64,000 bases of DNA from an uncultured bacterium (GCA_963826535.1 CAWGXL010000010.1:426814-490813), one strand, 5' to 3'. Numbered from the stretch's first letter, positions 1 through 32,430 are shown. Program-made: numbers and translations. Notes: generated from the letters alone by a model not told the origin.

Positions 1-247
1 ATAAGCGAATATTCCAATAAAAAAGCTTCTTGATCAGGTGCGGCTAACTGTTGAAAAAAAACAAAAACAGTCAAAAAAATAAATAATAATGTAATAAATG
101 GAAATCTCCGCGCTCGTATCGAATCCGAAATAGGGAACATAAATTAAATAATAAGCTTATTATACACATCAATTATCAAAATAGAGAAAGAAAACGATGA
201 GAAAGACCAATAATCCCTTGACATACTAATACACATCCAGTATTCTA

Positions 248-420
248 TATATATTCTTTCGGGGAATTGTGTAAATCAAAATCGGTAGTAAATCCCGATC
301 TAATCGGGAAAACTCTACAAGTCGCCTAGGCGACAGGAACTGGTGAAAATCCGGTAGCGACCGTATAGTCGGGAGGTACGCTTAGCGTACTATTCCCCAG
401 CTCAGCTGGGGATGAAAGAA
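248..420 (+). promoter_or_regulatory. FMN riboswitch (RFN element) aptamer candidate
   Basis: Conserved RFN-like blocks in order: CUUUCGGGG (256-264), CGGUAGUAAA (283-292) followed by hairpin CCCGAUCUAAUCGGG (294-308), hairpin GUCGCCUAGGCGAC (321-334), AACUGGUGAAAAUCCGG (338-354), GCGACCGUAUAGUCGGGAGG (357-376). Closing helix GGGGAAU (261-267) / AUUCCCC (392-398). Sits upstream of an ECF transporter next to riboflavin kinase. Confidence 0.6.
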
Positions 421-521
421 AGAATTAAATTATCTAATTTTTAAACCCTCAAATTAACTCAAAATTATATTGGGTTTAAATTAGAAATTGATCAATCAGG
501 TCAATTAGAAAAATTTATTGC

Positions 522-541
522 ACCCCGAAAGGGGTTTTTTT
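522..541 (+). terminator. Intrinsic terminator / SD-sequestering hairpin in riboswitch expression platform
   Basis: ACCCCgaaaGGGGU hairpin with GNRA loop followed by T8. The start codon at 542 follows the T-run directly. The AAAGGGG Shine-Dalgarno lies inside the 3' arm. Confidence 0.5.
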
Positions 542-1114
542 ATGAGTAAAACTAAATTAAAAACTCGTGAAATTGCAATAATAGCAGGTCTCGCTGCAGT
601 TTCAGCAGTAGTACAACTTATTCACATCGGATATCAATCACCTCAATGGGGGATGTGGATAGATATTGTAGGTGTAACTTGGGTAATCGGATTTTTACTA
701 TTCGGTTTACGAACTTCAGTCATAATTTCAATAGTCGGAGCAATTGTTATTACTCTATTTGCGCCTGAAACATGGCTAGGTGCAAGCATGAAATGGCTGG
801 CAAGTTTACCTATATTAATATTACTTGGAATATGGCTTATTAAAAAGAAAAAACCATTAAACCATTATAATTCACCTAAATACCTGATTATTCCTGTCTT
901 GCTTGGTATACTTATTCGATGCCTTATAATAATCCCGGTAAATTATTATTATGCGATTCCTATTTGGACAGGAATGAGTCCGGAAGTAGCTATGTCCACA
1001 ATTCCATGGTATATTATCGCTTTATTTAATATCATCCAAAGCATAATTGATGTCGCAATTGCCTGGATTCTGGTTTATAAATTCCGCCTAAATCGTTATG
1101 CAACTCACCCATAA
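542..1114 (+). CDS. ECF transporter substrate-specific (S) component, RibU-like riboflavin transporter candidate
   Basis: About 190 aa polytopic membrane protein with start MSKTKLK. First gene of an S-A-T ECF operon behind an FMN-riboswitch-like leader. The ORF-track start at 518 lies inside the terminator hairpin. Confidence 0.55.
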   Translation: MSKTKLKTREIAIIAGLAAVSAVVQLIHIGYQSPQWGMWIDIVGVTWVIGFLLFGLRTSVIISIVGAIVITLFAPETWLGASMKWLASLPILILLGIWLIKKKKPLNHYNSPKYLIIPVLLGILIRCLIIIPVNYYYAIPIWTGMSPEVAMSTIPWYIIALFNIIQSIIDVAIAWILVYKFRLNRYATHP

Positions 1115-1138
1115 AACTAAAACGTCCACCGGGCATTT

Positions 1139-1885
1139 ATGAAACAGGGGATATCCATTGAAAATGTATCTTTAAGCTACAATAAAAAATCGAATCAGTT
1201 GGAAAATATAAATCTCAATATTTCCAAAGGCACTTTTTTCGGTATTTCAGGCGTAAACGGATCAGGAAAAACGTCTTTTACACAACTTTTAAACGGCCTT
1301 ATTCCTCACGAGATTCACGGTAAACTAAAAGGGAATGTATACATTGATGGAATCAACACACGACATCACTCTGTAGCATTCTTCGCCAAAAAAATAGGCA
1401 TGCTTTTCCAAAATCCCGATTTTATGTTATTTAATCTAACGGTCTCAGAAGAAATTGCATTTGGTATAAAAAATCTTAAATTAACAAATCAATCTGAACG
1501 GATAATAAAAAGTCTTAATTGGGTTGGACTGGGCGGTTACGAAAAGCGCGATCCACAGACTTTATCGCTAGGAGAAAAACAAAAAGTTGCCCTTGCTAGC
1601 ATTTTAGCATTAGATACAGAATATATCGTACTCGATGAGCCAATTGCCATGCTGGATTACGCCGGTGCACTAAATCTATACAATCTATTACGAAATATTA
1701 ATTATAATAAAGGTATTACAATAATAGTAGTTGAACATGACACCGATTTCTTATTAGAATTTGCAAATGAAGTAGCAATTATTGACAAAGGGAAAATTAT
1801 GCTACATGGACCAACTAAGTCCGTATTTTCGAACAAATCAAAATTAAAAAAAATTGGTATAAAAATCCCGCAAATAATTAAATGA
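1139..1885 (+). CDS. ecfA: ECF transporter ATPase (EcfA/CbiO family ABC ATPase)
   Basis: Walker A GVNGSGKTS, ABC signature LSLGEKQKVALA, Walker B IVLDEP, H-loop VVEHD. Confidence 0.8.
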   Translation: MKQGISIENVSLSYNKKSNQLENINLNISKGTFFGISGVNGSGKTSFTQLLNGLIPHEIHGKLKGNVYIDGINTRHHSVAFFAKKIGMLFQNPDFMLFNLTVSEEIAFGIKNLKLTNQSERIIKSLNWVGLGGYEKRDPQTLSLGEKQKVALASILALDTEYIVLDEPIAMLDYAGALNLYNLLRNINYNKGITIIVVEHDTDFLLEFANEVAIIDKGKIMLHGPTKSVFSNKSKLKKIGIKIPQIIK

Positions 1886-2448
1886 AAAGAGCAATAACAA
1901 TTTTAAAAATTGGGTCTCTACTCATATTTAATTCCATTATATTTTTATACCATAACTATATTGTCCTACTAATATTATTTTTATTTTTTATAATATTTAT
2001 CGCTCTCATGAAAAAACCAATTTATCAAAGGTTGAACACAATTTTCCCTATTTTTTTATTGTGTATTTTATTCCAGGTTATTTTTAACTCTTCCATTTCA
2101 TTAAATGAAAGAGCGATACTTGGTTTTATCTTCGGACTTAGACTCACTTTAATTAGTCTGTCAGTATTCTTATTTCTCTCTATAACCTCCTTATTCGAAC
2201 TTACACAATTATTTTATTTCCTTCCACGTACTTGGTTGCTATTACTGATTATGACCTGGTATTTTATTCCGGGAATCATATCAGAAAGTGAAAAAATTAA
2301 ACAAATACAAAAATCACGCGGTCTTAATATACAAAGCTGGAACCCCTTTAAAAGTCTTGCTTCGCTAATTATTCCATTATTACATAGAGTTTTTCAGCGT
2401 TCGCAAACACTTTCACTCACATTATTATCCCGAGGATATGAAGAATAA
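1882..2448 (+). CDS. ecfT: ECF transporter transmembrane (T) component (EcfT/CbiQ-like)
   Basis: Hydrophobic 188 aa protein. ATGA start/stop overlap with ecfA gives translational coupling. Position matches the T component. Confidence 0.55.
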   Translation: MKRAITILKIGSLLIFNSIIFLYHNYIVLLILFLFFIIFIALMKKPIYQRLNTIFPIFLLCILFQVIFNSSISLNERAILGFIFGLRLTLISLSVFLFLSITSLFELTQLFYFLPRTWLLLLIMTWYFIPGIISESEKIKQIQKSRGLNIQSWNPFKSLASLIIPLLHRVFQRSQTLSLTLLSRGYEE

Positions 2449-2450
2449 AT

Positions 2451-2828
2451 TTACCACCCAATATTACGAAAATATTCCAATGCTACTTGCATATCTTTAT
2501 TCATCCGTTCAATCAACGCTTTCTCTGAATCAAAATCAAACTCTTCATTACCTCGAATCTTCTTCAAAAATTTAACGCTAACCCATTCCCCATAAATATC
2601 GCGGTTAAAATCAAAGATATATGTCTCAAACAAAATATCCGTTTCACCAAATGTTCGAGCCGCTCCCACAAAACTAACTGATTTAAATTTTCGCCCTTCA
2701 AATCTTGTCACAGAAACATAAATTCCCTCAGGAAATTGTTTATGTAAACGTAAATTAATCGTTGGAAACCCAAGAGATTTCCCCCTCTTTTTCCCTTGCA
2801 ACACCTTACCTCTAATCAAATAAAACAT
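2451..2828 (-). CDS. Riboflavin kinase (monofunctional RibF C-terminal-type domain)
   Basis: GKKRGKSLGFPTINL motif typical of flavokinase. 125 aa. Confidence 0.75.
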   Translation of the reverse strand: MFYLIRGKVLQGKKRGKSLGFPTINLRLHKQFPEGIYVSVTRFEGRKFKSVSFVGAARTFGETDILFETYIFDFNRDIYGEWVSVKFLKKIRGNEEFDFDSEKALIERMNKDMQVALEYFRNIGW

Positions 2829-2883
2829 AATATTTATGATATTTGATCTCTTAACTTTTAACTTTGAACTTTGAACTATTCTG

Positions 2884-2956
2884 TACCCCTGGAGGGAGTC
2901 GAACCCCCAACCGACTCGTTAGAACCGAGCTGCTCTATCCATTGAGCTACAGGGGC
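2884..2956 (-). tRNA. tRNA-Arg (anticodon TCT)
   Basis: Reverse complement folds as GCCCCTG/TA/GCTC-AATGGATA-GAGC/A/GCTCG-GTTCTAA-CGAGT/.../GGGGG-TTCGACT-CCCTC/CAGGGGT+A. Anticodon loop UUCUAAC. Confidence 0.8.
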
Positions 2957-3132
2957 ATATCACTCATGCAGACTTCCCTTCCAACTCCGTTTCCCCTGAG
3001 TTAATCGGAGTATACTTTAGGAACATCTTCAAATTACGCGCGTAAACCTAAACCCTCAAACATTCTAACAAACCGATATGCGCAATTCAACCAAATCCAA
3101 AATCTTGCTATAATATTTAATATTGTGCAATC

Positions 3133-5286
3133 ATGAAAAAAATTATTAATTCTTCAAATTCACAGTCCTTAAAAATTCCGAATCATATTTATATATCATT
3201 TTCTATAAGTATTTTTTTAAGCTCTTTTTTACTTTTCCAGGTGCAGCCTATTATAAGCAAGTATATTTTACCCTGGTTTGGCGGATCTTCTGCTGTTTGG
3301 ATTACCGCAATACTATTTTTCCAAACACTTCTCCTCCTCGGCTATTTATATGTATTTTTGATCTCACGGTTACAATTAAAAAAACAAATAATTATTCACA
3401 TCTCTTTATTAGTTTTAATTACCTTTAATGTCTTATCGAATTTAAATAGCTCTCAAATACCCATCCTGCCAAATATAAAATCAGGATTGGGTAACAATTT
3501 TGCACCGCAATTTCAAGTACTATGGATACTTTTCATAGGTACGGGGCTCACTTACTTTATTCTGTCTACAACAAGTATACTTCTGCAAAAATGGTTCGGT
3601 GTCACTTATTATGGCAAGTCACCATATATTTTTTATTCTTTGTCTAATATCGCATCCCTTTTAGCTTTAATCAGTTACCCATTCCTTGTTGAGCCGTTCT
3701 TTCAACTAAAAACACAAGGTTTAACATGGTCCATAGGATTCTTAATATATAGCATATTTCTACTTGTCTGTTGTCTTCAAACATTTTCCACAACTTTAAA
3801 ATTAAAACAGAATTTAAGCAAAACTAAAAATAACCTTAAGGTAGTAAACAATATAAGCCGAAAAAAACTTTTTTTATGGATTTTGTTACCGGCCATTTCC
3901 TCCCTAATGCTTATGGCTACTACCAATTTACTAACTCAGTCAATCGCACCCATCCCATTCCTTTGGCTTTTGCCTTTGAGCATATATCTAATCTCGTTTA
4001 TTATCTGCTTCAGTGGAAAGAAATGGTATTTACGCAATCTATATGCATATATATCTCTTGTTACCGGTTTTTTATCTCTTGCGTTCATGTTTGGCAATAT
4101 CCCTTCTCTTCTGACCGGCCTGATCTTTTATAGCTTGATCCTTTTAAGCGCTTGCATGATCTGTCACGGAGAGCTGTATGCTCTCAGACCCGCGTCCATT
4201 CATTTAGATTTATATTATCTATTTATTGCCCTCGGGAGTGTCATAAGCGGAATACTGGTCGGTATAATTGCTCCATTGTTTTTCAAGGGAATTTGGGAAA
4301 CATATATAGGATTTTATCTTACATTTTTACTTACCGTTTGGGTATTAATCCATTATAAAGATTCAATTTTTTATAGGCACCTGCATTTTTTTGCCTATTC
4401 AGATAAGGAAGCATATATCTTTGCACTAATAGCCTACCCGCTCACTCTCATTGCAACTCCCTTGATGATGAATCTACTATCAGGAAGTAATCCAATCACA
4501 CAAAAAGTATGGAGAAATTTCTATGGTGTCCTAAGTGTAAAACACAAAAACGGCAATAATTTGACAACTCTCAATCACGGCAATATCATACATGGTGCCC
4601 AATTCACTGGAAATCTACAATTCGAACCGACAACATATTACGGTAAAAGAAGTGGTGTCGGGCTTGCCATTCTAAATCATCCAAAATACAGGAAAAGAAT
4701 TCACATTGGAATTATCGGACTGGGTACAGGAACTCTGGCCGCTTATGGGAAAAAAGGGGATTCGCTTTCATTTTATGAAATAAATCCTCAAGTTGTTGAA
4801 ATAGCCAAAAGCCAGTTTACATATCTAAAAAATTCTCCTTCAAAAATAAATATTGTATTGGGCGATGGTCGATTGTCATTAGAAAAAGAAGTGCAGGAAA
4901 ATAAAGAAAAATATGATTTACTGATTGTGGATGCTTTTAGTGATGATGCAATACCATTACATTTGCTGACAAATGAAGCTCTATCAGTCTATCTGAAACG
5001 ACTGAGCCGCCCCGACGGCATAATCGCATTTCATATCTCTAATCAGTATATAGATCTAAAACCGGTACTGGTCCAATTAGCAATAAAATACCATTTACAA
5101 CATGCTTTTATTAATTCTCCTGCTTCGAATATAAATATGGCATCGGAGTGGGCATTATTGACATACAATAAAAAAATCCTTGAAATTCCAGCAATAGCCA
5201 ACTATAAATATCCCGAAAATAAAAAATACAAAGAAATAAGTTTGTGGACAGACAATTACAGTAACCTCTTCCAAGTATTAAAATAA
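3133..5286 (+). CDS. Fusion protein: N-terminal polytopic membrane domain plus C-terminal spermidine synthase-like (aminopropyltransferase/SAM MTase fold) domain
   Basis: At least 12 predicted TM segments, then GIIGLGTGTLAAYG ... LIVDAFSDD, which is the spermidine-synthase family glycine-rich and acidic motif pair. Confidence 0.55.
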   Translation: MKKIINSSNSQSLKIPNHIYISFSISIFLSSFLLFQVQPIISKYILPWFGGSSAVWITAILFFQTLLLLGYLYVFLISRLQLKKQIIIHISLLVLITFNVLSNLNSSQIPILPNIKSGLGNNFAPQFQVLWILFIGTGLTYFILSTTSILLQKWFGVTYYGKSPYIFYSLSNIASLLALISYPFLVEPFFQLKTQGLTWSIGFLIYSIFLLVCCLQTFSTTLKLKQNLSKTKNNLKVVNNISRKKLFLWILLPAISSLMLMATTNLLTQSIAPIPFLWLLPLSIYLISFIICFSGKKWYLRNLYAYISLVTGFLSLAFMFGNIPSLLTGLIFYSLILLSACMICHGELYALRPASIHLDLYYLFIALGSVISGILVGIIAPLFFKGIWETYIGFYLTFLLTVWVLIHYKDSIFYRHLHFFAYSDKEAYIFALIAYPLTLIATPLMMNLLSGSNPITQKVWRNFYGVLSVKHKNGNNLTTLNHGNIIHGAQFTGNLQFEPTTYYGKRSGVGLAILNHPKYRKRIHIGIIGLGTGTLAAYGKKGDSLSFYEINPQVVEIAKSQFTYLKNSPSKINIVLGDGRLSLEKEVQENKEKYDLLIVDAFSDDAIPLHLLTNEALSVYLKRLSRPDGIIAFHISNQYIDLKPVLVQLAIKYHLQHAFINSPASNINMASEWALLTYNKKILEIPAIANYKYPENKKYKEISLWTDNYSNLFQVLK

Positions 5287-7033: not shown

Positions 7034-8956
7034 ATGTTTGCTGCGTTGATTTTTACAATTTTTCCAACCATTCTTTTTTATCTCTTTTTCAATAAAATTA
7101 TAAAAAGCATTTTTCTAAAACTTTCCTTTTCTTGGTTTTGTGGTCAATTTATTATGGCAATTATAACTTTTCTGGTTGCAATAGTCATTTCGCATTTTAC
7201 ATCGAATATATTAGTAAAAGCTGAATTAATAACTCTTATTGCATTGACTATAATTTTACTTTTATTCAGCAAACGAGTTTTAAGTATAAATGAAAATATC
7301 AAATTAAATAAAACATTTTTATATAAAATTATCATTCTACTTTTTGTTTTCTCATTTTCTTACTTCTTTTACACACCACACTTGAAAATAAACAATGGAA
7401 TAATTTACACCAGTTATGCATATTGGGACTTCCAATGGCACGCGCCTTTAATTCAAAATTTCGTCTATGGTGACAATTTTCCTCCTCAAAATGAATCTTT
7501 TGCTGGAATGCCTCAAACATATCATTTTTTTTGGGGATTTCTTGTTTCTATTTATAATTCAATTGGCTTAGATCTGGTATATGCAATAAATTACTTCAGC
7601 ATTATCAGCCTCTTCTTCTTATTATTAGCTATTATTGGTTTATCTGAAGAATTATTGAAATCATTTACAGCCGGAATTCTGGCTGTACTCTTAAGTTTAA
7701 CCTCATCAAGCCTTCGTTTTATACATCATATATTATATTCCCAAAACGAAAATCTTATACATTCAATAAACAACATATTAACCAATTCTCTTCATCCATT
7801 CTTTTTTTCTTTTGTGCCTGGTAATCCATATGGATATAACGGAACAATATTTAACATGTTCTATTTTTTAGCAGAAAGGCAAATGGTTTTCGCAATAATA
7901 TTTTTATTATTCTCCGTCTGGGTAATTTATAAAAGAAGAAAAATATCATATAAATATCTCATAATAATTGGAGCTCTAATGGGTACATTTTTCTTGTGGC
8001 ATTTATATATTACAATCATGGCGCTTTGCGCAATTTTCTTTACTTTAGTAATAGATAAGGATAAAAAGAGAACATTTGTTTTATTTTCAACCTTTAGTAT
8101 TGTGTTTATCTTACACATTTTATACTTCAATGGCATCACCGACTCTATTTGGTTTCATCCGGATATAAAAACTTTTCCCAGATTCAATTTCAATTTTCCG
8201 ACAATGCCACATGAATACCCTTTAACAATTGCTAATACTTTAAATTATTATCTTTATGCTTACGGTTTTAAAATTATATTTCTAATATTTGGATTAATTT
8301 ACCTTTGGAAAAAAAATAAAAAAATTTTGTTTATTACGGCATCTTTGCTAATACCTACTTTTATCTTGGTTAATACTGTTCAACTATCGCCTTTATCTAT
8401 TTATGATAACCACAAATGGTTAAGACCTATGAATGTGATAGTTGATATAATTGCCGGTTTCGCACTTTTACGAATTTTTTTGTATAAAAAGAATGCTTTA
8501 TTTATCTCGACCGGAATATTCTCACTAATTCTCCTTACAACCTCAGGCTTTATAGAATTACCACCTTTTTTCAATTCAAATCAATACAATACATACGTTC
8601 AATCTCAATCACCCCTAATACACGCAATAAGAAAAGAAACTAATCCTGGGGACATTTTTTTAGCATATTCAAATAAAGAAATTCAAATAGCAGGTAGAAA
8701 AGTTTTTTTAGGTGACTATGCCGGACAAAACCTGGGACTGAGAAAAGATTTAAGAAAAAAGATAATTAAAAATATCTATACATCTGATAGTTTGGAAAAT
8801 TTTTGTTTTCTAACTCATAAACATAATATAGATTATGTTGAAGTTGATACCAGCCAATTAGACCAGGAAAAGGCTATAATATTTAAAGCCTTAGATGGAG
8901 AAAATAAACTACGATCTTATATCAATACCTCACAAACTTGCAGAACATCAAAGTAG
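7034..8956 (+). CDS. Large polytopic membrane protein, possible ArnT/PMT-like glycosyltransferase
   Basis: 640 aa with many TM helices and a C-terminal soluble region. No diagnostic motif recognised. Confidence 0.35.
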   Translation: MFAALIFTIFPTILFYLFFNKIIKSIFLKLSFSWFCGQFIMAIITFLVAIVISHFTSNILVKAELITLIALTIILLLFSKRVLSINENIKLNKTFLYKIIILLFVFSFSYFFYTPHLKINNGIIYTSYAYWDFQWHAPLIQNFVYGDNFPPQNESFAGMPQTYHFFWGFLVSIYNSIGLDLVYAINYFSIISLFFLLLAIIGLSEELLKSFTAGILAVLLSLTSSSLRFIHHILYSQNENLIHSINNILTNSLHPFFFSFVPGNPYGYNGTIFNMFYFLAERQMVFAIIFLLFSVWVIYKRRKISYKYLIIIGALMGTFFLWHLYITIMALCAIFFTLVIDKDKKRTFVLFSTFSIVFILHILYFNGITDSIWFHPDIKTFPRFNFNFPTMPHEYPLTIANTLNYYLYAYGFKIIFLIFGLIYLWKKNKKILFITASLLIPTFILVNTVQLSPLSIYDNHKWLRPMNVIVDIIAGFALLRIFLYKKNALFISTGIFSLILLTTSGFIELPPFFNSNQYNTYVQSQSPLIHAIRKETNPGDIFLAYSNKEIQIAGRKVFLGDYAGQNLGLRKDLRKKIIKNIYTSDSLENFCFLTHKHNIDYVEVDTSQLDQEKAIIFKALDGENKLRSYINTSQTCRTSK

Positions 8957-12774: not shown

Positions 12775-13572
12775 TTACGCAACCCCAATCTTCCAAAGAA
12801 TATCAAAGTAAGACTTCATAGCCTTCTTAATATTACTATCCTCAAAAACAATATGTATACTTGGTACTGCGCTGAAAATGCTAATAACAATATGATTTTG
12901 CCAAACTTGTATCTGCAGTGGAGAAGAATCCGCCGTTTCGATATATTTATATTTTCTCTTTAGCTCTTGTGGCTGATTTGCAAAAAATACTCTATTATTA
13001 TACTCAACCTGACCTCGAAATGCGGTGAAACACGTTAGCAACAATCTAATTTTTTTTTCAAGCCGTACTTTCTCAAATAGTGAAAGTTTACCTGATTCTA
13101 CCATAGCCTCGCGCCATGCTTGAGGATGAACACTTATTACAAATATGTCTTGTCCTGCAGGCTGCATTTTTATAAGCCTTATCTGCAATAGACCATAAGC
13201 GTGATTACCCATAAAGACGTTTACTTTTGGTTGCTGAGATTCTGCAGCGACCTCAAGAAGCGGCTTGAGGAGAAAATCAAATTTTTCTCTTTTTGCTTCT
13301 AATATCTCTTGGAGTTTGGATATTGGTACTGCCTGAATTTTTTTATTTCGGCCTAAACGACTCAAGTGAACAGTCCCTTTTCGCTCCATTTTCTTAATTT
13401 CCCGCTGAATTGTCTCTCGGTGAATACCTGTTTCCTTGCGTAGTCTTTCCACGCCAGTTACCCCTATTCGTAAAAGCGCAAGATAAATAGCTGCTTGGCC
13501 TCTATTATCAAACAATTCACCGGTTTGATTGAGACTGTCTATCAACTCATCCATGAAAATATTATAACACAT
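12775..13572 (-). CDS. TrmB-family winged-helix transcriptional regulator (paralog 1)
   Basis: N-terminal HTH: AAIYLALLRIGVTGVERLRKETGIHRETIQREIKKMERKG. C-terminal domain ends ...YFDILWKIG, like the other two paralogs. Likely true start is MDELIDS at 13554. Confidence 0.6.
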   Translation of the reverse strand: MCYNIFMDELIDSLNQTGELFDNRGQAAIYLALLRIGVTGVERLRKETGIHRETIQREIKKMERKGTVHLSRLGRNKKIQAVPISKLQEILEAKREKFDFLLKPLLEVAAESQQPKVNVFMGNHAYGLLQIRLIKMQPAGQDIFVISVHPQAWREAMVESGKLSLFEKVRLEKKIRLLLTCFTAFRGQVEYNNRVFFANQPQELKRKYKYIETADSSPLQIQVWQNHIVISIFSAVPSIHIVFEDSNIKKAMKSYFDILWKIGVA

Positions 13573-14547: not shown

Positions 14548-15288
14548 TTATATCGGAACCGCCTTTTGCCAATATTTATCAAAAATCCGCTGGAAATGTT
14601 GATTAATCCCTCTATGTACGAAGCGCACTCCGAACTGTTTTGACCTGTCTTTCGGATCATACATCATCACATAAGAAATATTCTCATCATATAAGACTAA
14701 ATGCCAGTCAAAAGATTTGGCAAATCGAATAACAGCACCAATATGCTTATAACTCAAAAGCGCATTATGATTTTCTTTAGTATGTTCCAGAGCTATAATC
14801 TTTAGATCCACACCTCGTTTTACTGCTTGCAAATTTGCATATAGGTACTCATTCGGAACTCCGATAGATAATACTGAATAAATATATTTAATATTTTGTT
14901 TTGTTTTACCTAGATCCGGTATATTTTGCCTAATCAAGTCGTCTCTTCCTTGTACAAACGAAATATTAAATATTTTGTCATCTTGGAGCTCATTTGTAAC
15001 AGCCCGAAACTCCAGATCAGAAAACAGATTGTGGAACCAACTCCTGGCTTGCATAGCATAATTTTCACCGGCCTCACTAATTTGCTTTGCCCGATAGGTA
15101 ACAGGATAGGTATCCTGCTGATCAATTAAGCTAAGTCTAAGTAAATGTTCAACCAATGGATATACTTGCTGTGATTTAATATCAAGCTCCTCTCCAATCG
15201 ATTTTGCGTTTAGTTCACGCTTTTCAAGTAACAATTTATACACAGCATGTGCCTGCTTTGATAATCCCATAGCAAACTGATTTTTCAT
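14548..15288 (-). CDS. TrmB-family transcriptional regulator (paralog 2)
   Basis: HTH: AHAVYKLLLEKRELNAKSIGEELDIKSQQVYPLVEHLLRLSLI. C-terminus ends ...IFDKYWQKA. Confidence 0.6.
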   Translation of the reverse strand: MKNQFAMGLSKQAHAVYKLLLEKRELNAKSIGEELDIKSQQVYPLVEHLLRLSLIDQQDTYPVTYRAKQISEAGENYAMQARSWFHNLFSDLEFRAVTNELQDDKIFNISFVQGRDDLIRQNIPDLGKTKQNIKYIYSVLSIGVPNEYLYANLQAVKRGVDLKIIALEHTKENHNALLSYKHIGAVIRFAKSFDWHLVLYDENISYVMMYDPKDRSKQFGVRFVHRGINQHFQRIFDKYWQKAVPI

Positions 15289-18888: not shown

Positions 18889-19209
18889 GTGTACATTTAT
18901 AACATGACACAAGTGATCCCGGTTACCGAGGCAAGAAAAAATTTATTGAAGCTCGTTGATGAAGTCGACAAGAAATACACACGCATTGATCTGACCAAAA
19001 ACGGCCGGGTTAAAGCAACCATAGTCTCTCCTGATTATATTGATTCACTAGAAGAAACACTTTATACGCTTGAACACTCTATGAAAGATATTCGCCGTGC
19101 AGAAAAAGAAATTGCGAAAGGAAATTTTGTAACCCTTGAAGAGTTAAAAAAAGATCTTGCCATTCGAACAGCAAAAGAAAAGACGAAAGAAAAGAAACAT
19201 GTCCGCTAA
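18889..19209 (+). CDS. Type II antitoxin, Phd/YefM family
   Basis: N-terminus MTQVIPVTEARKNLLKLVDEV...RIDLTKNGRVKATIV fits the Phd/YefM fold. Overlaps the downstream toxin by 11 nt. Confidence 0.7.
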   Translation: MYIYNMTQVIPVTEARKNLLKLVDEVDKKYTRIDLTKNGRVKATIVSPDYIDSLEETLYTLEHSMKDIRRAEKEIAKGNFVTLEELKKDLAIRTAKEKTKEKKHVR

Positions 19210-19456
19210 ATCACTCATTATCGAAAGGCCAGCAAAGAAAAAACTCAAGAAATTTACCCACGAAATCCACATGAGAATTATTACTGCCTTCGTTGAGATT
19301 CAAAATAATCCCTTAATAGGAGAAAAATTGCGTGGCGAACTTCAAGGATATTATAAACTTCGTTTAGGGGACTATAGAATTGTTTATTCCTTCGACTCAA
19401 AACAAAGCAAAGTTAGTGTAGTAAAAATCGAACACAGACAAGGTATTTATAAATAA
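19199..19456 (+). CDS. Type II toxin, RelE/ParE family
   Basis: 85 aa. C-terminal LRLGDYRIVYSFDSKQSKVSVVKIEHRQGIYK matches RelE/ParE (GDYRIIY...V.V..I.HR). Start MSAKSLII at 19199. Confidence 0.7.
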   Translation: MSAKSLIIERPAKKKLKKFTHEIHMRIITAFVEIQNNPLIGEKLRGELQGYYKLRLGDYRIVYSFDSKQSKVSVVKIEHRQGIYK

Positions 19457-19466
19457 TATTTTTTCT

Positions 19467-20255
19467 TCATTTTATATCGTCCCAGATATTTTTAAACACC
19501 TCACGCAGATTATGAGCAAGAGTAGCATCTCTGATTTCTAGAAGATAAAAAGGGTGTTCTCGTGTATTTATCATTATCACATAGTTCCCGATAATCCATG
19601 TGGTTGCTGTAAATTGGCTCGCCTTGCTCCAGAACTTAATTTCCCGCCTTGTATATATATCTTTAAGCGCCTGCTCGGTCTGAGATGTATTGCTCAATAA
19701 TTTTACTGTCAGACCAAAATGTTCATGTTCCCAAAGCCATTCAAGCCATTTTTTATAATGCTCAACAAGTGTGTGATCCTGAAAACCCCAATTTATACCA
19801 TCAGTTTTCATTGCGTCTTTATACCAATTTTTCGAACGGGTATACAAATACTCCTCCAGTTGATTTTCTTCGATAAATCGGATTCGTGGTACCGAAAATT
19901 TTTCTGTTTTGAATAGTTGCGAGAGATCTGCAACAGTCTGGTTTATTAATCCTTCTTTTTTACCCAATGCAACCTTTTCTTTTTCTATAAGATTACCAAG
20001 CTCCATTGGCGGCAATGCAACTAAAGAAATTTTTTTACCGGCAAGATCTTCTGCAATAACCCCCTTAGCAACAAGGCTTTTAGCAATCGCGTACACAGTC
20101 ACTCTCTTAATATTGGTTATTGTGGCAAGCTCAACAGGTGTAGCTCGACCAAGACCAAGTAATGCTTTATAGACCTCAATCTCTTTTTGCTTGAATCCAA
20201 GCCTTATTAGATTTAAATAAAGATTTTCCATAATTTTATTATACATTGTTGTCAA
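19467..20255 (-). CDS. TrmB-family transcriptional regulator (paralog 3)
   Basis: HTH: EIEVYKALLGLGRATPVELATITNIKRVTVYAIAKSLVAKGVI. C-terminus ends ...VFKNIWDDI. Divergent from the ABC transporter operon. Confidence 0.65.
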   Translation of the reverse strand: MTTMYNKIMENLYLNLIRLGFKQKEIEVYKALLGLGRATPVELATITNIKRVTVYAIAKSLVAKGVIAEDLAGKKISLVALPPMELGNLIEKEKVALGKKEGLINQTVADLSQLFKTEKFSVPRIRFIEENQLEEYLYTRSKNWYKDAMKTDGINWGFQDHTLVEHYKKWLEWLWEHEHFGLTVKLLSNTSQTEQALKDIYTRREIKFWSKASQFTATTWIIGNYVIMINTREHPFYLLEIRDATLAHNLREVFKNIWDDIK

Positions 20256-20318: not shown

Positions 20319-21179
20319 ATGAAAAACTCAATAATCATTTTACTAGTAGCTATATTATCACTAGCGGTCTCGTTTATTGGAACTAGAATTTTTTTAACAA
20401 ACACAGATCAAAACCAAGACCTTTTAGCTAAAGTTTTGGACCGTGGAGAAATTCGAGCCGGGTATATCGTCTATCCTCCATCATTTATTAAAGACCCGGC
20501 TACAGGAAAGATGTCAGGTATTACTTACGATGCTATAGAAAAAGCGGGTAGAAATCTTGAACTTAAAATAAATTGGGTAGAGGAAACAGGTTGGGGAACC
20601 ATGATTGAAGGCTTAAATACCGAAAGATATGACATTGTTGTGAGTGGAATATGGCCGAACTCTGTACGAGGAAAAAATGCTGACTTTACAATCCCTTTAT
20701 ATTACAGTGCAGTTGGCATTTATACACGTACCAATGATGATCGTTTCTACGAATTAAGTAAAATAAATAATAAAGATGTAACTATCGCTACAATTGACGG
20801 CGAAATGTCATCTTTTATCACTAAAGCAACATTTCCGAAGGCTAAGACTCTTTCCTTGACACAGGATGCACAGATTTCCCAATTGTTGCTTAATATAAAA
20901 ACCGGAAAAGCTGATGTGACTTTTGTTGAAACAGCAATAGCCCAAGAATTTCTAGCAAACAATCCTGACTCGATAAAAAATATTGTACCAAACAACCCAA
21001 TACGATCCTTCGGTAACTCTATTCTTGTACCGAAAAATCAGGAGGGTTTCAAATCAATGATGAATACTGCTCTCGAAGAATTATTTAACAGCGGGTACAT
21101 AGATGAATTACTAAAGAAATACGAAAAATATCCCGACTCATTATATCCGGTAGCGAAGCCATATGCCACTCCCATCTAG
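20319..21179 (+). CDS. ABC transporter substrate-binding protein, polar amino acid family (paralog 1)
   Basis: N-terminal signal anchor plus family-3 SBP fold. About 75% identical to paralog 2. Confidence 0.7.
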   Translation: MKNSIIILLVAILSLAVSFIGTRIFLTNTDQNQDLLAKVLDRGEIRAGYIVYPPSFIKDPATGKMSGITYDAIEKAGRNLELKINWVEETGWGTMIEGLNTERYDIVVSGIWPNSVRGKNADFTIPLYYSAVGIYTRTNDDRFYELSKINNKDVTIATIDGEMSSFITKATFPKAKTLSLTQDAQISQLLLNIKTGKADVTFVETAIAQEFLANNPDSIKNIVPNNPIRSFGNSILVPKNQEGFKSMMNTALEELFNSGYIDELLKKYEKYPDSLYPVAKPYATPI

Positions 21180-21206
21180 CTCACTATGATATAATCCATT
21201 AAGTCT

Positions 21207-22067
21207 ATGAACACTACAAAAACAATTCTACTTGTAATCGTAGTGGCGCTAATTACATCTTTAATCGGAGTCAAGATTTTTTCCGACAACACAAGCAAAA
21301 AGGAAGACCTTTTAGCCAAAGTTTTGGCAAAAGGTGAAATTCGTGCTGCATATTTCATATATTCGCCGACATTTATTAAAGATCCCAATACTGGAAAATT
21401 CTCTGGCATTTTCCATGACGCTCTCGAAGAAGCTGGGGGGAACCTCAACTTAAAAATTAATTGGGTTGAAGAAGTCGGCTATGGCGAGATGCTCGAAGGT
21501 CTGAATGCCGGGCGATACGATATTATTGGGAGTAATGTATGGCCTAACTCAACACGTGGGAAAAATGCGGACTTCACTATTCCATTATATTACAGCGGGG
21601 TTGGTATTTATACCCGTACTGGTGATGACCGTTTCTCTGACTTAAGTAGTATAAATAATAAGGAAGTTACAATCTCTACAATTGACGGCGAGATGTCCTC
21701 CTTCATTGCCAAGACAACTTTTCCGAATGCCAAAACGCTCTCACTACCACAAAATACACAGTTTTCACAAATATTGCTCAATATAAAAACTGGTAAAGCA
21801 GACTTAACTTTTGTGGATGAAGCAATAGCCCAAGAATTTTTAGCTAACAACCCGGACTCAGTGCAAAATATTGTGCCAGGTAATCCAATCAGGTACTTTG
21901 GCAACACTATAGTTGTACCGAAAAATCAGGAAGGGTTCAAATCAATGATTAACACTGCTCTGGAAGAGTTGTTAAACAATGGATATATAGATGAATTAAT
22001 AAAGAAATACGAAAAACATCCCGGCTCGTTATATCCGGTAGCAAAACCGTATACTCCGCCTAATTAA
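21207..22067 (+). CDS. ABC transporter substrate-binding protein, polar amino acid family (paralog 2)
   Basis: Tandem duplicate of 20319-21179. Same length (286 aa). Confidence 0.7.
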   Translation: MNTTKTILLVIVVALITSLIGVKIFSDNTSKKEDLLAKVLAKGEIRAAYFIYSPTFIKDPNTGKFSGIFHDALEEAGGNLNLKINWVEEVGYGEMLEGLNAGRYDIIGSNVWPNSTRGKNADFTIPLYYSGVGIYTRTGDDRFSDLSSINNKEVTISTIDGEMSSFIAKTTFPNAKTLSLPQNTQFSQILLNIKTGKADLTFVDEAIAQEFLANNPDSVQNIVPGNPIRYFGNTIVVPKNQEGFKSMINTALEELLNNGYIDELIKKYEKHPGSLYPVAKPYTPPN

Positions 22068-22074
22068 TTCATAT

Positions 22075-22935
22075 ATGAATATAAAAACTATTTTACTCGT
22101 TGTTATAGTTGCTATTATTGCTTCTTTTGTGACGTCCAAAATTTTATCGGATAAAACATATAATTCGAACAACATGCTGGATACAGTTTTAGAAAAAGGA
22201 AAAATCCGAGCTGCATATTTAGTCTATCCGCCGTATTTTATTAAAGACACTAAGACCGGGAAATTTTCAGGCATATTTTACGATATAACAGAGTTATTAG
22301 GTAAAAAACTTGATCTAAAAGTAGAATGGACTGAAGAGGTTGGCTTTGCGGATATATTTACAGGTCTTGACAGTGGACGCTATGATGTTTTTGCAGGAGG
22401 ACTCTGGCCCGGCGCAACTCGCGCAAAAGCCGGATATTTCTCAACTCCCGTTTTTTACAGTCTAATAAAAGCCTGGGGAAGAGCCGATGATCATAGGTTT
22501 GACAACAATCTCGCGGCTATTAATTCTCCAAACGTTCATATTTCCACTATAGACGGAGCAATGGAGGATATTATTGCCAAAGCAGATTTTGAAAAAGCAC
22601 AAAGAGAATCATTGCCCCAACTAAGTCCATTTACACAAAATTTTCTAAATATTACCTCTGGCAAGGCAGACGTTACATTTGCAGAACCTTCTTCTGTTCA
22701 CTTCTTTTTGAAAAACAATCCAGGCACACTGAGAGAAATCGCTCCGAACCAGCCATTACGTATATTTGGAAACAGCCTAGTCTTAAAAAGGGGGGAAGAT
22801 GAATTTAAGCAGGTGATTGACGCAGCCATCGATGAAGCCGTCTTTAGCGGAGAGATAGATAAGATTTTAAAAAAATATGAATCTTCTCCGGATGAATTCC
22901 CCAGACCCGCACTTCCTTATGCCCAGACTAATTAA
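22075..22935 (+). CDS. ABC transporter substrate-binding protein, polar amino acid family (paralog 3, divergent)
   Basis: Same length and architecture. About 40% identity to paralogs 1 and 2. Confidence 0.65.
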   Translation: MNIKTILLVVIVAIIASFVTSKILSDKTYNSNNMLDTVLEKGKIRAAYLVYPPYFIKDTKTGKFSGIFYDITELLGKKLDLKVEWTEEVGFADIFTGLDSGRYDVFAGGLWPGATRAKAGYFSTPVFYSLIKAWGRADDHRFDNNLAAINSPNVHISTIDGAMEDIIAKADFEKAQRESLPQLSPFTQNFLNITSGKADVTFAEPSSVHFFLKNNPGTLREIAPNQPLRIFGNSLVLKRGEDEFKQVIDAAIDEAVFSGEIDKILKKYESSPDEFPRPALPYAQTN

Positions 22936-22938
22936 CGC

Positions 22939-23604
22939 ATGAACGTAATAGATATCATAATTAATTTTAGAGAAGCTCTTGTCGCTGGACTTCTTGTCAC
23001 TTTAGGATTATGCCTTATTGTTTGGCTATCAGGCATGATATTTGGCGTGCTCTTTGGTTGGCTTGCTCACCGTAAACAAGAAAATGTCGGATACGCTTTA
23101 AAAATTTCGTCATTTCTTTTAGCAAGTATTCCTCTTCTGGTTTTATTATTTTGGCTTCACTACCCACTCCAAGAATTGTTAGGAGTTGTAATTATTCCAT
23201 TCATCACAGCGGCAGTAGCTCTTTCACTTCTAAATATCGTTAGTGTTGCCCAAATAGTAAGAGACGTGCTTGCTGAATTTCCGGAGGAATACAGAATAGC
23301 AGGAAAAGTTTGCGGACTTTCAGAAAAAGAAATTTTTGCCAAAATAGAATTCCCGATTATCTTTCGTCAAATCATTCCTCAATTTCTGACCCTGCAAGTG
23401 AACATGCTCCAAATGACTTTATTTGCAAGTCTTATTTCTGTTGAAGAAATCTTCCGCGTTGCCCAAAGAATAAATTCAATGATTTACAAACCTGTCGAGA
23501 TTTATACAGCGCTCGCGATCTTTTTCATTGGTATCTGTCTGCCCCTAAATATTCTTGCCTACTGGCTGAAAAACAAATACACGAGAAATTTATCTGAAAA
23601 ATAA
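22939..23604 (+). CDS. ABC transporter permease (polar amino acid, HisM/GlnP-like)
   Basis: Five or six TM helices. EAA-like loop ...SVEEIFRVAQRINS. Confidence 0.7.
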   Translation: MNVIDIIINFREALVAGLLVTLGLCLIVWLSGMIFGVLFGWLAHRKQENVGYALKISSFLLASIPLLVLLFWLHYPLQELLGVVIIPFITAAVALSLLNIVSVAQIVRDVLAEFPEEYRIAGKVCGLSEKEIFAKIEFPIIFRQIIPQFLTLQVNMLQMTLFASLISVEEIFRVAQRINSMIYKPVEIYTALAIFFIGICLPLNILAYWLKNKYTRNLSEK

Positions 23605-23605
23605 T

Positions 23606-24325
23606 ATGCTACAAGCAACTAACATTACAAAATCAATAAATGGCAGAAGTATACTAAAAGACGTTTCACTTTCGCTGAAAAGCGGAGAAATAGTTTCCAT
23701 AATCGGCCCCAGCGGAGCAGGAAAAACTAGTTTACTTCGGGCAATCTCATTGATTGATCTGCCAAACTCCGGCTCTTTGACTATTGGAAAAGAAATCTAT
23801 CAATTCCCCATAATTCAAAGTGAATTGCTGAGATTGCCATACCCTGATTTAACAGTTGTATTCCAACAACTCTTTATCTGGCCGCATTTAACAATCAGAC
23901 AAAATCTCACCCTTCCGCTGAGAGAAAATATTGACCAAAAACACTTTAAAGAAATGACTGCATTGTTCCAAATGAATTCGTTTTTAGATAGGTATCCGAA
24001 CGAAGTATCTCTAGGCCAACGCCAAAGAGCCGCACTCGTACGCGCTTTATTACTAAAACCAAAATATCTCCTGCTCGATGAGGTAACCTCTGCTTTAGAT
24101 ATAGAACAATCACATCTTATCCTAAGTCACCTCAAGCATATTGCCGAAAAGGGTGTTGGTATAATGTTTGTGAGCCACGCACTGCATTACGTCAGCAAAA
24201 TCAGCGATAAGGTTATCTTTCTCGATAATGGATTAGTTTCAGAAGAAGGAAAAAACGACATTTTGACTAAACCAAAAACAGAGCGGCTGAGAAAATTTAT
24301 TAAAGTTTCCCAACAAATTTTTTAA
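23606..24325 (+). CDS. ABC transporter ATP-binding protein
   Basis: Walker A GPSGAGKTS, signature LSLGQRQRAALVRAL, Walker B LLLDEVTSALD, H-loop FVSHA. Confidence 0.85.
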   Translation: MLQATNITKSINGRSILKDVSLSLKSGEIVSIIGPSGAGKTSLLRAISLIDLPNSGSLTIGKEIYQFPIIQSELLRLPYPDLTVVFQQLFIWPHLTIRQNLTLPLRENIDQKHFKEMTALFQMNSFLDRYPNEVSLGQRQRAALVRALLLKPKYLLLDEVTSALDIEQSHLILSHLKHIAEKGVGIMFVSHALHYVSKISDKVIFLDNGLVSEEGKNDILTKPKTERLRKFIKVSQQIF

Positions 24326-30081: not shown

Positions 30082-32430
30082 ATGAAAAATTTAAACAAAA
30101 TATTAAGAAAAACTTTTACACTATTTTTAATATCAATACTTCTTTTGTACTCTACGGTACCAGCTTTAGTTATTGCGGAAGAACCAGTACCACCCACCGC
30201 TCCTGAGGCACCTGTTGTAAATGAAACTCCACCTGAAAATCCTGCACCACCCGAAATACCTCAAGCCCCGTCACAAACGGCAAGTAATGATTCTCCAAAT
30301 GATCAATCTAGTCCTTCGGAAACCACCGATACAAATAATTCTGACAATGAACAAAATACAGTACAAAGCCAGGAAGACAAAGATCGTGAAGCAAAAAAGA
30401 AAGCCGCAGGAGAAGCATTTATCGCCAACTATCATAACTCGACACCGGGCAGCACAAATCCCGGCACAGGCACTTCGTCTAATGGGAATGTTGGCGATAC
30501 CACGCTCGCAACAGGAAATGCAACCAATAATGGCTCAAGTGTAACAACAGGCAACAACAATCTTCAATCTGGAAATCAATCAGCAGGTTCGGCAACAGTT
30601 GGCTCAAACAGTCATGAAGGAGCATCTATATCTAATAGCGGCAACGGAGCGGGCTCTGACAATTCCGGGACATCATCTTCTATTGTAAACAATGATACCA
30701 ACCAAAACAACGGCGCCCAAGTTAGTAACATCAACAACCAATCTTCAACCACAGGTACGAACCAATCATCTTTTAACAATGGCAACACCATCCTAAATAG
30801 CGGGGATTCCAACACCTCGGGAACAGCAATCACCGCAGTAAATACGAATGCTGACGGTGTGATGGTATCCGAATTCAACATTGCAGATGACCACAAAGGA
30901 GACATTGTATTAACTGCTGACGCATATCTTGCCAATTGCATTTCCGGTTGCGTCCACCCTGCATGGGTCAGTAATATCGGAAATGGCGCGAATTCCTCAA
31001 ATACAGCCAATGCAAATTCTACGTCTAATAGCTCAACTTTCCAAAACAACGATGCTTCTATTGGGAATAATTTGACTCTTGCCGCCAACTCCGGTAACAA
31101 CGATTCAAGCTACAATACAGGTGGTAATACTACTATAAATACAGGTGATGCAAACATTTCCGCCAACTCATTAACCTTTGCTAATAATAATATAGCCGGT
31201 AATGTCGTATATGGTGTAGTCAACATCTACGGCACACTGGAAGGGGATATAATCTTACCCGAGTATACAGTCGCTAACCCGAGCGCCGCCTTGACATCAA
31301 GTAATTCCGGGAATGGCGCCAATTCATCAAATGCAACTAATATCGCAACTGAGAATAACAACAATACATTCCAAAATAACGACGCGACTATCACCAATGA
31401 TCTACTAATAAACGCTGAAACAGGCAATAACGATTCGAGTACGAATACAGATGGCACTACCACAATTAAAACCGGACAAACTAATGTTGATGCCAATGTA
31501 CTCAATGTCGTCAATTCCAATATAAATGGAGGCACAGTTTGGTTAGTACTTATAAACGAAGCAGGTAAGTGGTTTGGACAATTACTCGGACAACCGGAAG
31601 GACAAAACTACGCCGGATCCGACGGCACCAAATTCGAGCTAAGTCCCGAAGGACAAATTACAGCTAGCCACGATTCGGGTAACACGAACGTTGCTAGCAA
31701 TAATGCCAATGGCGCAGGCTCTGAAAATAATACATCAGTTTCGACTACCAACAATAATACAACAAGTCAAAACAACGATGCCAATATTAACAATTCACTC
31801 AATCTTTCGGCCAATACAGGCGGTAATTCGACAGACTACAACACAGGCGGTAATAATATAGTCAATACAGGTGACGCAAATATAATAGCTAATATGGTTA
31901 ACTTCGTAAACAATAATATTGTAGGTAATGGAAAGCTGGTAGTTACTGTAGTAAATGTTTTCGGTAGCTGGCTAGGTGACTTTGTCGCCCCCGGCCAACA
32001 AAAACGGGAAAAACCAAACCAGTTAGCACAAAATACGAATACTGCTACTAACAATGCTGAATCAACACCAAACAACAATACAACAAAAGTTATACCCACT
32101 CCCTCAGTAACTCAAACAAACAATGGGCAAGTTGCCGGCATCTCCCAATCTGTTCAAAAATCAATAACTTCAGACTTCAAACCAAATAGTGTAAACGGAA
32201 CTAAACAAATTACTTATGTAGATGGGTACAAGGATGCCAAAACAAAAGTAGCAGGTTCCAACACCAATAAATTACTGGCAGATGCATCTTTCAAATATAA
32301 TTCATCAGATAAAACAAAAGCTATTACTATTAATTTAGCCTGGCTCCTGGTTTTAGCCCCAATAATAATTCTTATTATTGCAGGAAGATATATAATCTGG
32401 AGTAAATTTATAACCAAGCTACGTTCATGA
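30082..32430 (+). CDS. Secreted/membrane-anchored N/S/T/G-rich repeat protein 2 (Pro-rich N-region, ~4 repeats, C-terminal TM)
   Basis: Signal peptide, then PPTAPEAPVVNETPPENPAPPEIP. Repeats GNGA.SSN...QNNDA.I.N.L...NTGGN..[IV]NTGDAN. C-terminal hydrophobic anchor LAWLLVLAPIIILIIAG. Confidence 0.75.
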   Translation: MKNLNKILRKTFTLFLISILLLYSTVPALVIAEEPVPPTAPEAPVVNETPPENPAPPEIPQAPSQTASNDSPNDQSSPSETTDTNNSDNEQNTVQSQEDKDREAKKKAAGEAFIANYHNSTPGSTNPGTGTSSNGNVGDTTLATGNATNNGSSVTTGNNNLQSGNQSAGSATVGSNSHEGASISNSGNGAGSDNSGTSSSIVNNDTNQNNGAQVSNINNQSSTTGTNQSSFNNGNTILNSGDSNTSGTAITAVNTNADGVMVSEFNIADDHKGDIVLTADAYLANCISGCVHPAWVSNIGNGANSSNTANANSTSNSSTFQNNDASIGNNLTLAANSGNNDSSYNTGGNTTINTGDANISANSLTFANNNIAGNVVYGVVNIYGTLEGDIILPEYTVANPSAALTSSNSGNGANSSNATNIATENNNNTFQNNDATITNDLLINAETGNNDSSTNTDGTTTIKTGQTNVDANVLNVVNSNINGGTVWLVLINEAGKWFGQLLGQPEGQNYAGSDGTKFELSPEGQITASHDSGNTNVASNNANGAGSENNTSVSTTNNNTTSQNNDANINNSLNLSANTGGNSTDYNTGGNNIVNTGDANIIANMVNFVNNNIVGNGKLVVTVVNVFGSWLGDFVAPGQQKREKPNQLAQNTNTATNNAESTPNNNTTKVIPTPSVTQTNNGQVAGISQSVQKSITSDFKPNSVNGTKQITYVDGYKDAKTKVAGSNTNKLLADASFKYNSSDKTKAITINLAWLLVLAPIIILIIAGRYIIWSKFITKLRS

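Follow-up and report, generated by a model that had tools for sequence, protein, structure and literature searches.

In the models of the flavin mononucleotide (FMN) riboswitches of Bacillus subtilis ribD and Lactococcus lactis rib, an antiterminator is formed by long-range pairing and the 3′ arm of helix P1 serves as the anti-antiterminator (PMC8966005); the switching sequence of FMN riboswitches includes the joining strand J1/2 (PMC7573352). Here we describe a leader of the same aptamer family, found in a 64,000-nucleotide stretch of DNA from an uncultured bacterium (GCA_963826535.1 CAWGXL010000010.1:426814-490813), hereafter the window, whose first letter is position 1 of all coordinates given below. 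The predicted switch shares with the B. subtilis and L. lactis systems the OFF logic, the terminator with its U-run, the long-range antiterminator, the P1 3′ arm as anti-antiterminator, and J1/2 as part of the switching sequence. It differs from them in controlling a transporter rather than biosynthesis, in a U-run that abuts the start codon, so that the same hairpin hides a Shine-Dalgarno (SD)-like GGGGU, and in two extra hairpins in the strand J6/1 of the aptamer.

The impX riboswitch of Fusobacterium nucleatum (crystal structure 3F2Q) also lies upstream of a riboflavin-transporter gene, and it has in common with the window the six-helix junction and identical ligand-contact nucleotides. Its J6/1 is a continuous 7-nt strand, whereas J6/1 of the window is split after A99 by a 38-nt insert, and P2 of the window is A/U-rich (UUG/CAA). 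The variant FMN riboswitches of subtypes 1 and 2 (Atilho et al., 2019; PMC6298564) likewise use an FMN-like scaffold, can be mis-scored by Rfam, and precede transporters. However, they mutate the guanosines that contact the phosphate and ribityl groups, control efflux pumps, and in some cases are ON switches (PMC6298564), whereas the window has a canonical pocket and an insertion in J6/1.

The substrate-binding (S) component of the operon can be compared with RibU of Staphylococcus, Lactococcus, and Listeria, a group II S component of energy-coupling factor (ECF) transporters that is commonly found behind an FMN riboswitch. Both are small proteins of about 190 aa under predicted FMN-riboswitch regulation. 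Canonical RibU relies on a shared module of two ATPases and a T subunit (PMC5397151, PMC9060500), whereas in the window the S gene is the first of a separate S-A-T operon, which has only one ATPase gene and a short T component (188 aa). The window S sequence is also too divergent for the Pfam and NCBIfam models. Group I ECF transporters, such as BioMNY and CbiMNQO, combine S and T components with a single ATPase gene, the product of which presumably forms a homodimer, and their S components serve biotin or metals. The window operon resembles them in having one ATPase gene together with those for S and T, and its substrate component is RibU-like.

Our sequence analyses indicate that positions 253-541 are very likely an FMN-sensing OFF riboswitch of an operon devoted to riboflavin uptake (S component of RibU type, a single ATPase, and T component) in a Microgenomates-type Patescibacterium. 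The initial annotation had proposed an FMN riboswitch with a terminator/SD-hiding hairpin ahead of a RibU-type ECF importer and beside a monofunctional riboflavin kinase. This core reading is upheld because orthologous leaders pass the RF00050 model, the FMN contacts are present, and the S-component profile matches RibU 3P5N alone among solved structures. It is a known riboswitch family with classical switching logic, met here in a phylum that has been little studied; what is modestly new is a recurrent two-hairpin insert in J6/1.

To place the leader among its relatives, we collected homologues of the first gene of the operon, which encodes the S component: 63 loci came from genomes of GTDB species and 80 from metagenomes, 143 in total (numbered with the prefix L). 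The hosts were mostly Microgenomates-type Patescibacteria (Roizman-, Gottesman-, Woese-, and Levybacteria), plus some archaea, and at least 86 of the loci have a homologous aptamer directly ahead of the S gene. Nothing specific on FMN riboswitches of Patescibacteria or the candidate phyla radiation (CPR) came up in literature searches. Many GTDB representative metagenome-assembled genomes (MAGs) with the locus (L003, L005, L008, L012, and others) are titled "uncultured Gammaproteobacteria/Pseudomonadales bacterium" and are probably mislabelled submissions.

A permissive local Rfam scan of positions 150-620 placed RF00050 at 254-389 with 54.0 bits (E = 1.4e-11), which is far beyond chance. The gathering score of the family is 66.2 bits, so the match above threshold on which the initial annotation had staked its proposal is absent. 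We judge this shortfall misleading. The score remains below the threshold because two hairpins inserted in J6/1 (38 nt) lie between P6 and the true 3′ strand of P1: in the alignment, P2 to P6 and their junctions had high posterior probability, but the 3′ strand of P1 was wrongly assigned to GCUUAGCG, within the insert, where the pairs were marked as non-canonical. Cobalamin models, run as the control that had been proposed, gave only noise (AdoCbl, 17.2 bits, E = 1.1). An nhmmer search tied the window aptamer to 35 orthologous leaders, and 14 of 20 leaders upstream of orthologous S genes exceeded the RF00050 gathering score, with 67-102 bits.

The residues that contact the ligand are known from described FMN riboswitches: G10, G11, G32, G62, and G84 bind the ribityl-phosphate part, and A48, A85, and A99 the flavin (PMC6298564). 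We mapped them onto the window via the Rfam alignment rather than a three-dimensional model, with the placement of the junctions taken from PMC7573352. All five guanosines have kept their equivalents (G262, G263, G284, G337, and G359, respectively), as have the three adenosines (A320, A360, and A374).

The complete aptamer spans 253-425 on the plus strand, as delimited by the RF00050 match, the minimum free energy (MFE) fold, and covariation in P1. P1 pairs 253-260 with 418-425 (AUUCUUUC/GAAAGAAU) and is followed by J1/2 (GGGGAA, 261-266) and by P2 (267-279). The dinucleotide C283-G284 pairs with C358-G359. P3 (285-318) includes an extended hairpin at 293-309; after it come J3/4 (AA, 319-320), P4 (321-334), J4/5 (AGGA, 335-338), P5 (339-355), J5/6 (356-360), and P6 (361-372). 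J6/1 is split into GA (373-374) and UGAAA (413-417). When positions 248-430 were folded alone, the MFE structure was the canonical six-helix FMN fold closed by P1 (z = -4.85), with two more helices in J6/1.

The conserved blocks quoted in the initial annotation lie where it had put them (CUUUCGGGG at 256-264, CGGUAGUAAA at 283-292, AACUGGUGAAAAUCCGG at 338-354, and GCGACCGUAUAGUCGGGAGG at 357-376), but the aptamer ends at 425 and not at 420. Of the divergence that had been described in P2 and around P1, the part assigned to P1 is in fact the J6/1 insert; P2 is A/U-rich yet paired, as in relatives scoring 80-88 bits. Upstream of the aptamer, a sigma-70-like promoter is predicted at 218-246 on the plus strand, with TTGACA (218-223), a 17-nt spacer, and TATTCT (241-246), matching the consensus at 10 of 12 positions. 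The leaders of relatives have TTGAC-type -35 boxes at an equal distance. Transcription would probably start at about 253, the first base of P1.

The position of P1 was confirmed by comparison. In a fixed-register alignment of 39 unique leaders, P1 was paired in 96% of the cells; four of the seven pairs changed on both sides, and one of them was UA in 22 leaders against CG in 16. None of 500 shuffles reached the observed values, and slid controls were 52-64% paired. The 3′ strand was set by a fixed offset after AGUCGG, since the automatic search was misled by the GAAAGAAAG repeat and by tolerance of G-U pairs; in the five insert-bearing loci of this alignment, the window among them, it was placed by eye. 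Relatives free of the insert read (U)UCUUUC immediately followed by GGGG on the 5′ side and, further down, AGUCGG, GAUGAAA, and GAAAGAA in direct succession. GGGG is therein the invariant or conserved J1/2.

The insert in J6/1 occupies 375-412 on the plus strand (38 nt), directly after the equivalent of A99. Its first hairpin (375-391) is GGUACGC-UUA-GCGUACU, a linker AU follows, and the second hairpin (394-412) is UCCCCAGC-UCA-GCUGGGGA. The canonical J6/1 of the clade, GAUGAAA, thus reads in the window as GA, hairpin, AU, hairpin, UGAAA. Exactly two adjacent hairpins at an equal insertion point were found in L012, L022, L028, L036, L076, L083, L088, and L100, so that the two-hairpin insert occurs in 9 of the 86 related aptamers, including the window. 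The sequences of the nine inserts are unrelated and their folds have z values of -3.2 to -8.2. Eight of these nine aptamers score below the RF00050 gathering threshold (39-62 bits), and L083 passes it narrowly (67.2 bits). Other relatives have inserts in the loops of P2, P3, or P6. A limited search of the searchable papers found no description of an insert in J6/1.

It is possible, and we propose it tentatively, that the insert, whose position and shape are conserved although its sequence is not, defines an undescribed eight-helix architectural subclass among the FMN riboswitches of Microgenomates-type Patescibacteria, one that is systematically missed at the Rfam threshold. Three of the nine inserts have one hairpin with CCCC/GGGG arms (the window at 394-412, the second hairpin of L076, and the first of L088), and the second inserted hairpin of L076 has a 3′ arm, UUCGGGG, that repeats the sequence of the P1 5′ strand and J1/2. 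The likeness of these hairpins to the terminator and the switching strand may reflect chance, duplication, or a decoy. The insert module may accordingly be more than a passive decoration and take part in switching, for instance by offering the switching strand an internal decoy.

Downstream of P1 there is an A/U-rich spacer (426-521, plus strand) with two predicted hairpins at about 433-487 and 490-512. The permissive scan gave no Rfam match for it, and relatives usually have one hairpin of unrelated sequence there; the spacer might serve for timing or bring the terminator's 5′ arm near P1. The predicted terminator/sequestor follows at 522-541 on the plus strand. It consists of ACCCC-GAAA-GGGGU at 522-535 (ACCCCGAAAGGGGU, -8.3 kcal/mol) and of seven U residues (535-541) that abut the ATG at 542, and it is the sole terminator-like site within positions 1-3200. 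The initial annotation was right about the hairpin and its place, although it had counted eight U residues; the AAAGGGG that it quoted lies at 528-534 within the hairpin, directly before the ATG. GGGGU (531-535) is the sole SD-like sequence before this start codon.

Of the 86 loci that bear an aptamer, 64 have a CCCCGAAR..GGGG hairpin with a U-run ahead of the gene (the terminator of L076 was assigned by hand). The ATG directly follows the U-run in about 33 of 47 unique leaders, which have no SD-like element other than GGGGU, and in nine of the 47 a separate GGAGG and start codon come after the U-run. A dual role of the window hairpin, in termination and in burying the SD, is plausible.

Two groups of relatives depart from this arrangement. 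Ten leaders (L006, L012, L017, L018, L019, L051, L070, L086, L100, and L116) have no terminator hairpin, and their ATG lies 2-5 nt past the P1 3′ strand (e.g., GGGAGGAAAGAAAGAAUAUG). These leaders appear to use J6/1 and the 3′ strand of P1 as their SD, and control would be purely translational, with no distinct expression platform. A subclade formed by L048, L052, L063, L141, and L142 has a different platform, in which a downstream segment (UUCUUCUUUCUCUAUCCCGA in L052) is complementary to the P6 3′ strand, J6/1, and the P1 3′ strand. The ACCCCGA/AUCCCGA motif is kept there with no GGGG partner or U-run beside the ATG, and the riboflavin kinase gene is divergent and upstream of the riboswitch. 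In L018, at about 1450-1700, a run of N is flanked by a duplicate of the 5′ half of the aptamer, probably a scaffolding artefact.

The switching sequence comprises the P1 5′ strand plus J1/2 (254-264, plus strand; UUCUUUCGGGG), which can pair either with 418-424 in P1 or with CCCCGAAAGGG at 523-533. The MFE fold of the whole leader contains the latter pairing, which occupies the terminator's 5′ arm and loop. The leader with this antiterminator (ON) has -94.2 kcal/mol, and that with P1 plus the terminator (OFF) has -89.7 kcal/mol; for the duplexes alone, the values are -17.1 for the antiterminator and -6.4 kcal/mol for P1. Over 49 leaders, the ON and OFF energies were close (median difference -1.0 kcal/mol), and the antiterminator was present in the MFE structure of 16. 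An 8-bp antiterminator helix holds in most unique leaders. Of 16 loci with long loops (7-38 nt), 15 kept GAAR at the 5′ edge. The helix gains a further pair, GGGG-U with A-CCCC, in 35 of the 49 leaders (p ~0.0005); any extension past it, at positions 2-4 upstream of CCCC, was unsupported among the relatives. The predicted antiterminator is thus supported by conservation, energetics, and precedent, and not by independent covariation.

The mechanism that we infer follows classical FMN-riboswitch logic, with the P1 3′ arm as anti-antiterminator and J1/2 within the switching sequence. When FMN is bound, J1/2 (G262 and G263) would be held in the phosphate pocket and P1 would be locked. The ACCCC-GAAA-GGGGU hairpin with its U7 could then form and would terminate transcription just ahead of the ATG; in transcripts that read through, the same hairpin would also bury the only SD-like GGGGU. 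When FMN is absent, the free GGGG of J1/2 would nucleate pairing with the CCCC of CCCCGAAAG (523-531), which would displace the P1 3′ strand, of identical GAAAG sequence, and make the antiterminator with the strand at 254-264. The terminator would be blocked, GGGGU exposed, and the operon expressed. Imported riboflavin would be phosphorylated by the adjacent kinase to FMN, which would feed back on the RNA.

Gene calls together with Pfam and NCBIfam confirmed the operon content given in the initial annotation: an S component, one ATPase, and a T component. The S component (190 aa; 542-1114, plus strand) was typed by comparing a profile of its homologues with solved structures. A profile of 24 homologues matched solely RibU 3P5N, described as "Riboflavin uptake protein" (E = 4.1e-7, over the full length, residues 9-182 against 13-181), and no other chain was reported at E values up to 10. 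PF12822 was matched by 13 of the 24 close homologues (best E = 5.5e-10). With NCBIfam the homologues gave weak matches only: half of the homologues matched the uncharacterised MPN527 family and one a FolT family. The JGI label for homologues is "riboflavin transporter FmnP". From the FMN-riboswitch control and the linkage to a kinase, we propose that the S component would bind and transport riboflavin.

The single ECF-type ATP-binding cassette (ABC) ATPase (248 aa; 1139-1885, plus strand) contains the Walker A motif GVNGSGKT, the signature LSLGE, the Walker B motif IVLDEP, and VEHD. It matched PF00005 with 89 bits, and its best NCBIfam models were TIGR04520 and TIGR04521, with 215 and 203 bits, below the equivalog cut-offs. 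The start of the T component (CbiQ/EcfT family; 1882-2448, plus strand), which is short (188 aa), overlaps the stop of the ATPase gene (ATGA). This protein matched PF02361 with 61.2 bits against a cut-off of 25 and has two SRG coupling motifs, at residues 145 and 183. Nearly all of the 143 loci keep the order S-A-T. A shared EcfAA'T (group II) module was not seen at the locus, where the S gene comes first in an S-A-T operon of its own that has one ATPase gene; a second, shared module may lie elsewhere in the genome.

The monofunctional riboflavin kinase (125 aa; 2451-2828, minus strand) has a GFPTIN motif and converges on the operon, as had been annotated. PF01687 covers residues 3-120 of its 125 with 110.5 bits. 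Among the models of bifunctional RibF only the C-terminal kinase part (about 182-300) was matched, and the FAD-synthetase domain is absent. A kinase gene is linked to the transporter genes in about 48 of the 143 loci, where it is the fourth in the operon, converges on it as in the window, or lies upstream in divergent orientation. A Pfam scan that covered 64 of the 71 open reading frames (ORFs) of at least 90 aa found no gene for riboflavin (rib) biosynthesis or FAD synthetase in the 64-kb window (60 further ORFs). This is weak evidence on the salvage-only flavin economy put forward in the initial annotation: it is compatible with salvage, which a window of this size cannot establish. The only other flavin-related gene in the 64 kb encodes a PNPOx-like split-barrel protein (57315-57851), of a family that typically binds FMN, and it likely consumes FMN from the adjacent kinase.

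Two sets of relatives have the transporter genes without an aptamer. Archaeal MAGs (Bathyarchaeia, Aenigmatarchaeota, Micrarchaeota, and Hecatellales; L041-L047, L050, L054, and L056-L062) share the S-A-T operon, and their S components are mostly 43-51% identical to that of the window, falling to 33-39% in some loci of Micrarchaeota. The pattern points to transfer between archaea and CPR bacteria, with differing regulation. In a Beckwithbacteria-like group (L035, L055, L101, L114, L122, and L128-L137), a tRNA gene on the opposite strand precedes the S gene.

Several results weigh against the identification of the window leader as a working FMN switch for riboflavin uptake. At the gathering threshold, an Rfam search of the whole window reported only tRNAs and not RF00050. 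J3/4 is AA where the consensus is GA (G47 to A); the same change occurs in L018, L019, L072, L086, and L113, and G47 is not among the listed ligand contacts. The S protein of the window itself had no match in Pfam or NCBIfam, and it hits no curated RibU model. The stem of the terminator has just 5 bp. For the antiterminator, GGGG and CCCC were anchors of the alignment and hence uninformative, and its sole variable pair changes about four times on the tree of S proteins, with about two of five events compensated. A proof by covariation was consequently abandoned: the raw counts (Fisher p = 0.001) shrink on that tree to about two compensated changes of about five.

Four other explanations were weighed, two of which concern the aptamer. 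The initial annotation had closed it with a helix between GGGGAAU (261-267) and AUUCCCC (392-398). The two heptamers complement each other perfectly, and a forced fold can stack their helix on P1, but such pairing would occupy the GGGG that carries the phosphate contacts G10 and G11 (PMC6298564) and abolish the binding pocket and P2. AUUCCCC belongs to the J6/1 insert and is specific to the window, being absent from the closest relatives L064 and L087, and the other eight insert-bearing loci have no consistent complementarity of this kind. With the helix forced, the leader has -84.1 kcal/mol, 5.6 kcal/mol worse than the aptamer plus terminator and 10 kcal/mol worse than the MFE. The true P1, 253-260/418-425, is conserved and covaries. 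We therefore rejected GGGGAAU/AUUCCCC as P1, and give the architecture built on it almost no credence. It is also very improbable that the aptamer has decayed or changed its ligand in the manner of the FMN-variant classes, as the J6/1 insert, the G47-to-A change, and the sub-threshold score (54.0 against 66.2 bits) could suggest. The insertion adjoins A99, and variant FMN RNAs of altered specificity are known, also ahead of transporters (PMC6298564). Those variants, however, swap the phosphate- or ribityl-contacting guanosines for adenosines (PMC6298564), whereas the window keeps all five together with A48, A85, and A99. Every helix and the partner sequences of the switch are intact, the gene context is flavin uptake plus a kinase and not efflux, and nine loci share the insert as a recurrent structured module.

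The other two concern the cargo of the transporter and the level at which the hairpin acts. The S component might import something other than riboflavin, such as FMN/FAD (flavin adenine dinucleotide) or a non-flavin substrate: it is a protein without a curated family match, the weak homologue matches to MPN527 and FolT point elsewhere, PF12822 is a general S-component family, and RibU of Listeria also mediates the acquisition of FMN and FAD (PMC9060500). We consider this unlikely, given that the sole match among solved structures is RibU, that an FMN aptamer controls the gene in at least 86 loci, and that a riboflavin kinase, which is sensible only if unphosphorylated riboflavin is imported, is linked or co-transcribed in about 48. 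Less easily dismissed, though still the less probable view, is that the hairpin at 522-541 acts at a single level. In the nine relatives in which an independent GGAGG and start codon follow the hairpin and U-run, the hairpin must be a terminator, and in the window the burial of the SD could be incidental. Conversely, the 5-bp stem of -8.3 kcal/mol, and the relatives that regulate without a terminator and have the ATG right after the P1 3′ strand, would suit a pure sequestor of the SD or start; against this, the U-run is conserved as U, which sequestering does not require. In the window, as in about 33 of the 47 leaders, the ATG comes directly after the U-run and no SD-like element other than GGGGU is present; therefore, a read-through transcript that keeps the hairpin should be poorly translated too, which argues against action at one level only.

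Beyond the operon and the kinase, a tRNA-Arg(TCT) gene (2883-2956, minus strand) is a neighbour that does not belong to the system. Many large ORFs of the window lack a Pfam match (e.g., 3133-5286, 7034-8956, and 30082-32430), among them one for a 717-aa multi-pass membrane protein right past this tRNA gene. The region 20319-24325 encodes three paralogous solute-binding proteins of family 3 in tandem (each of 286 aa), followed by an ABC permease and an ATPase, probably an amino-acid importer with a triplicated binding protein. Three TrmB-like regulators are encoded within 8 kb, all on the minus strand (12775-13572, 14548-15288, and 19467-20255), and a Phd/ParE toxin-antitoxin pair was found at 18889-19456. 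The window also encodes a bacterial RRM_1 protein (43138-43509) and two sortases (33868-34431, and 51966-52523 on the minus strand).

For the annotation of the family, these leaders expose a blind spot of threshold-based Rfam searches: aptamers with large inserts in J6/1 or in the loops of P2, P3, or P6 score 39-62 bits and are dropped. The strand that joins P6 to P1 tolerates a large structured insertion beside A99, and the insert may inform models of how the stacking of P1 and P6 relays ligand binding. For the organisms, our reading implies that Microgenomates-type CPR bacteria (Patescibacteria) control the uptake of vitamin B2 by the same FMN-riboswitch logic as Firmicutes. The switch would serve an S-A-T importer that is complete in itself, and the riboflavin kinase of many relatives is encoded in the same transcript. 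Such a compact loop of import, phosphorylation, and sensing is consistent with reduced genomes that scavenge the precursors of their cofactors.

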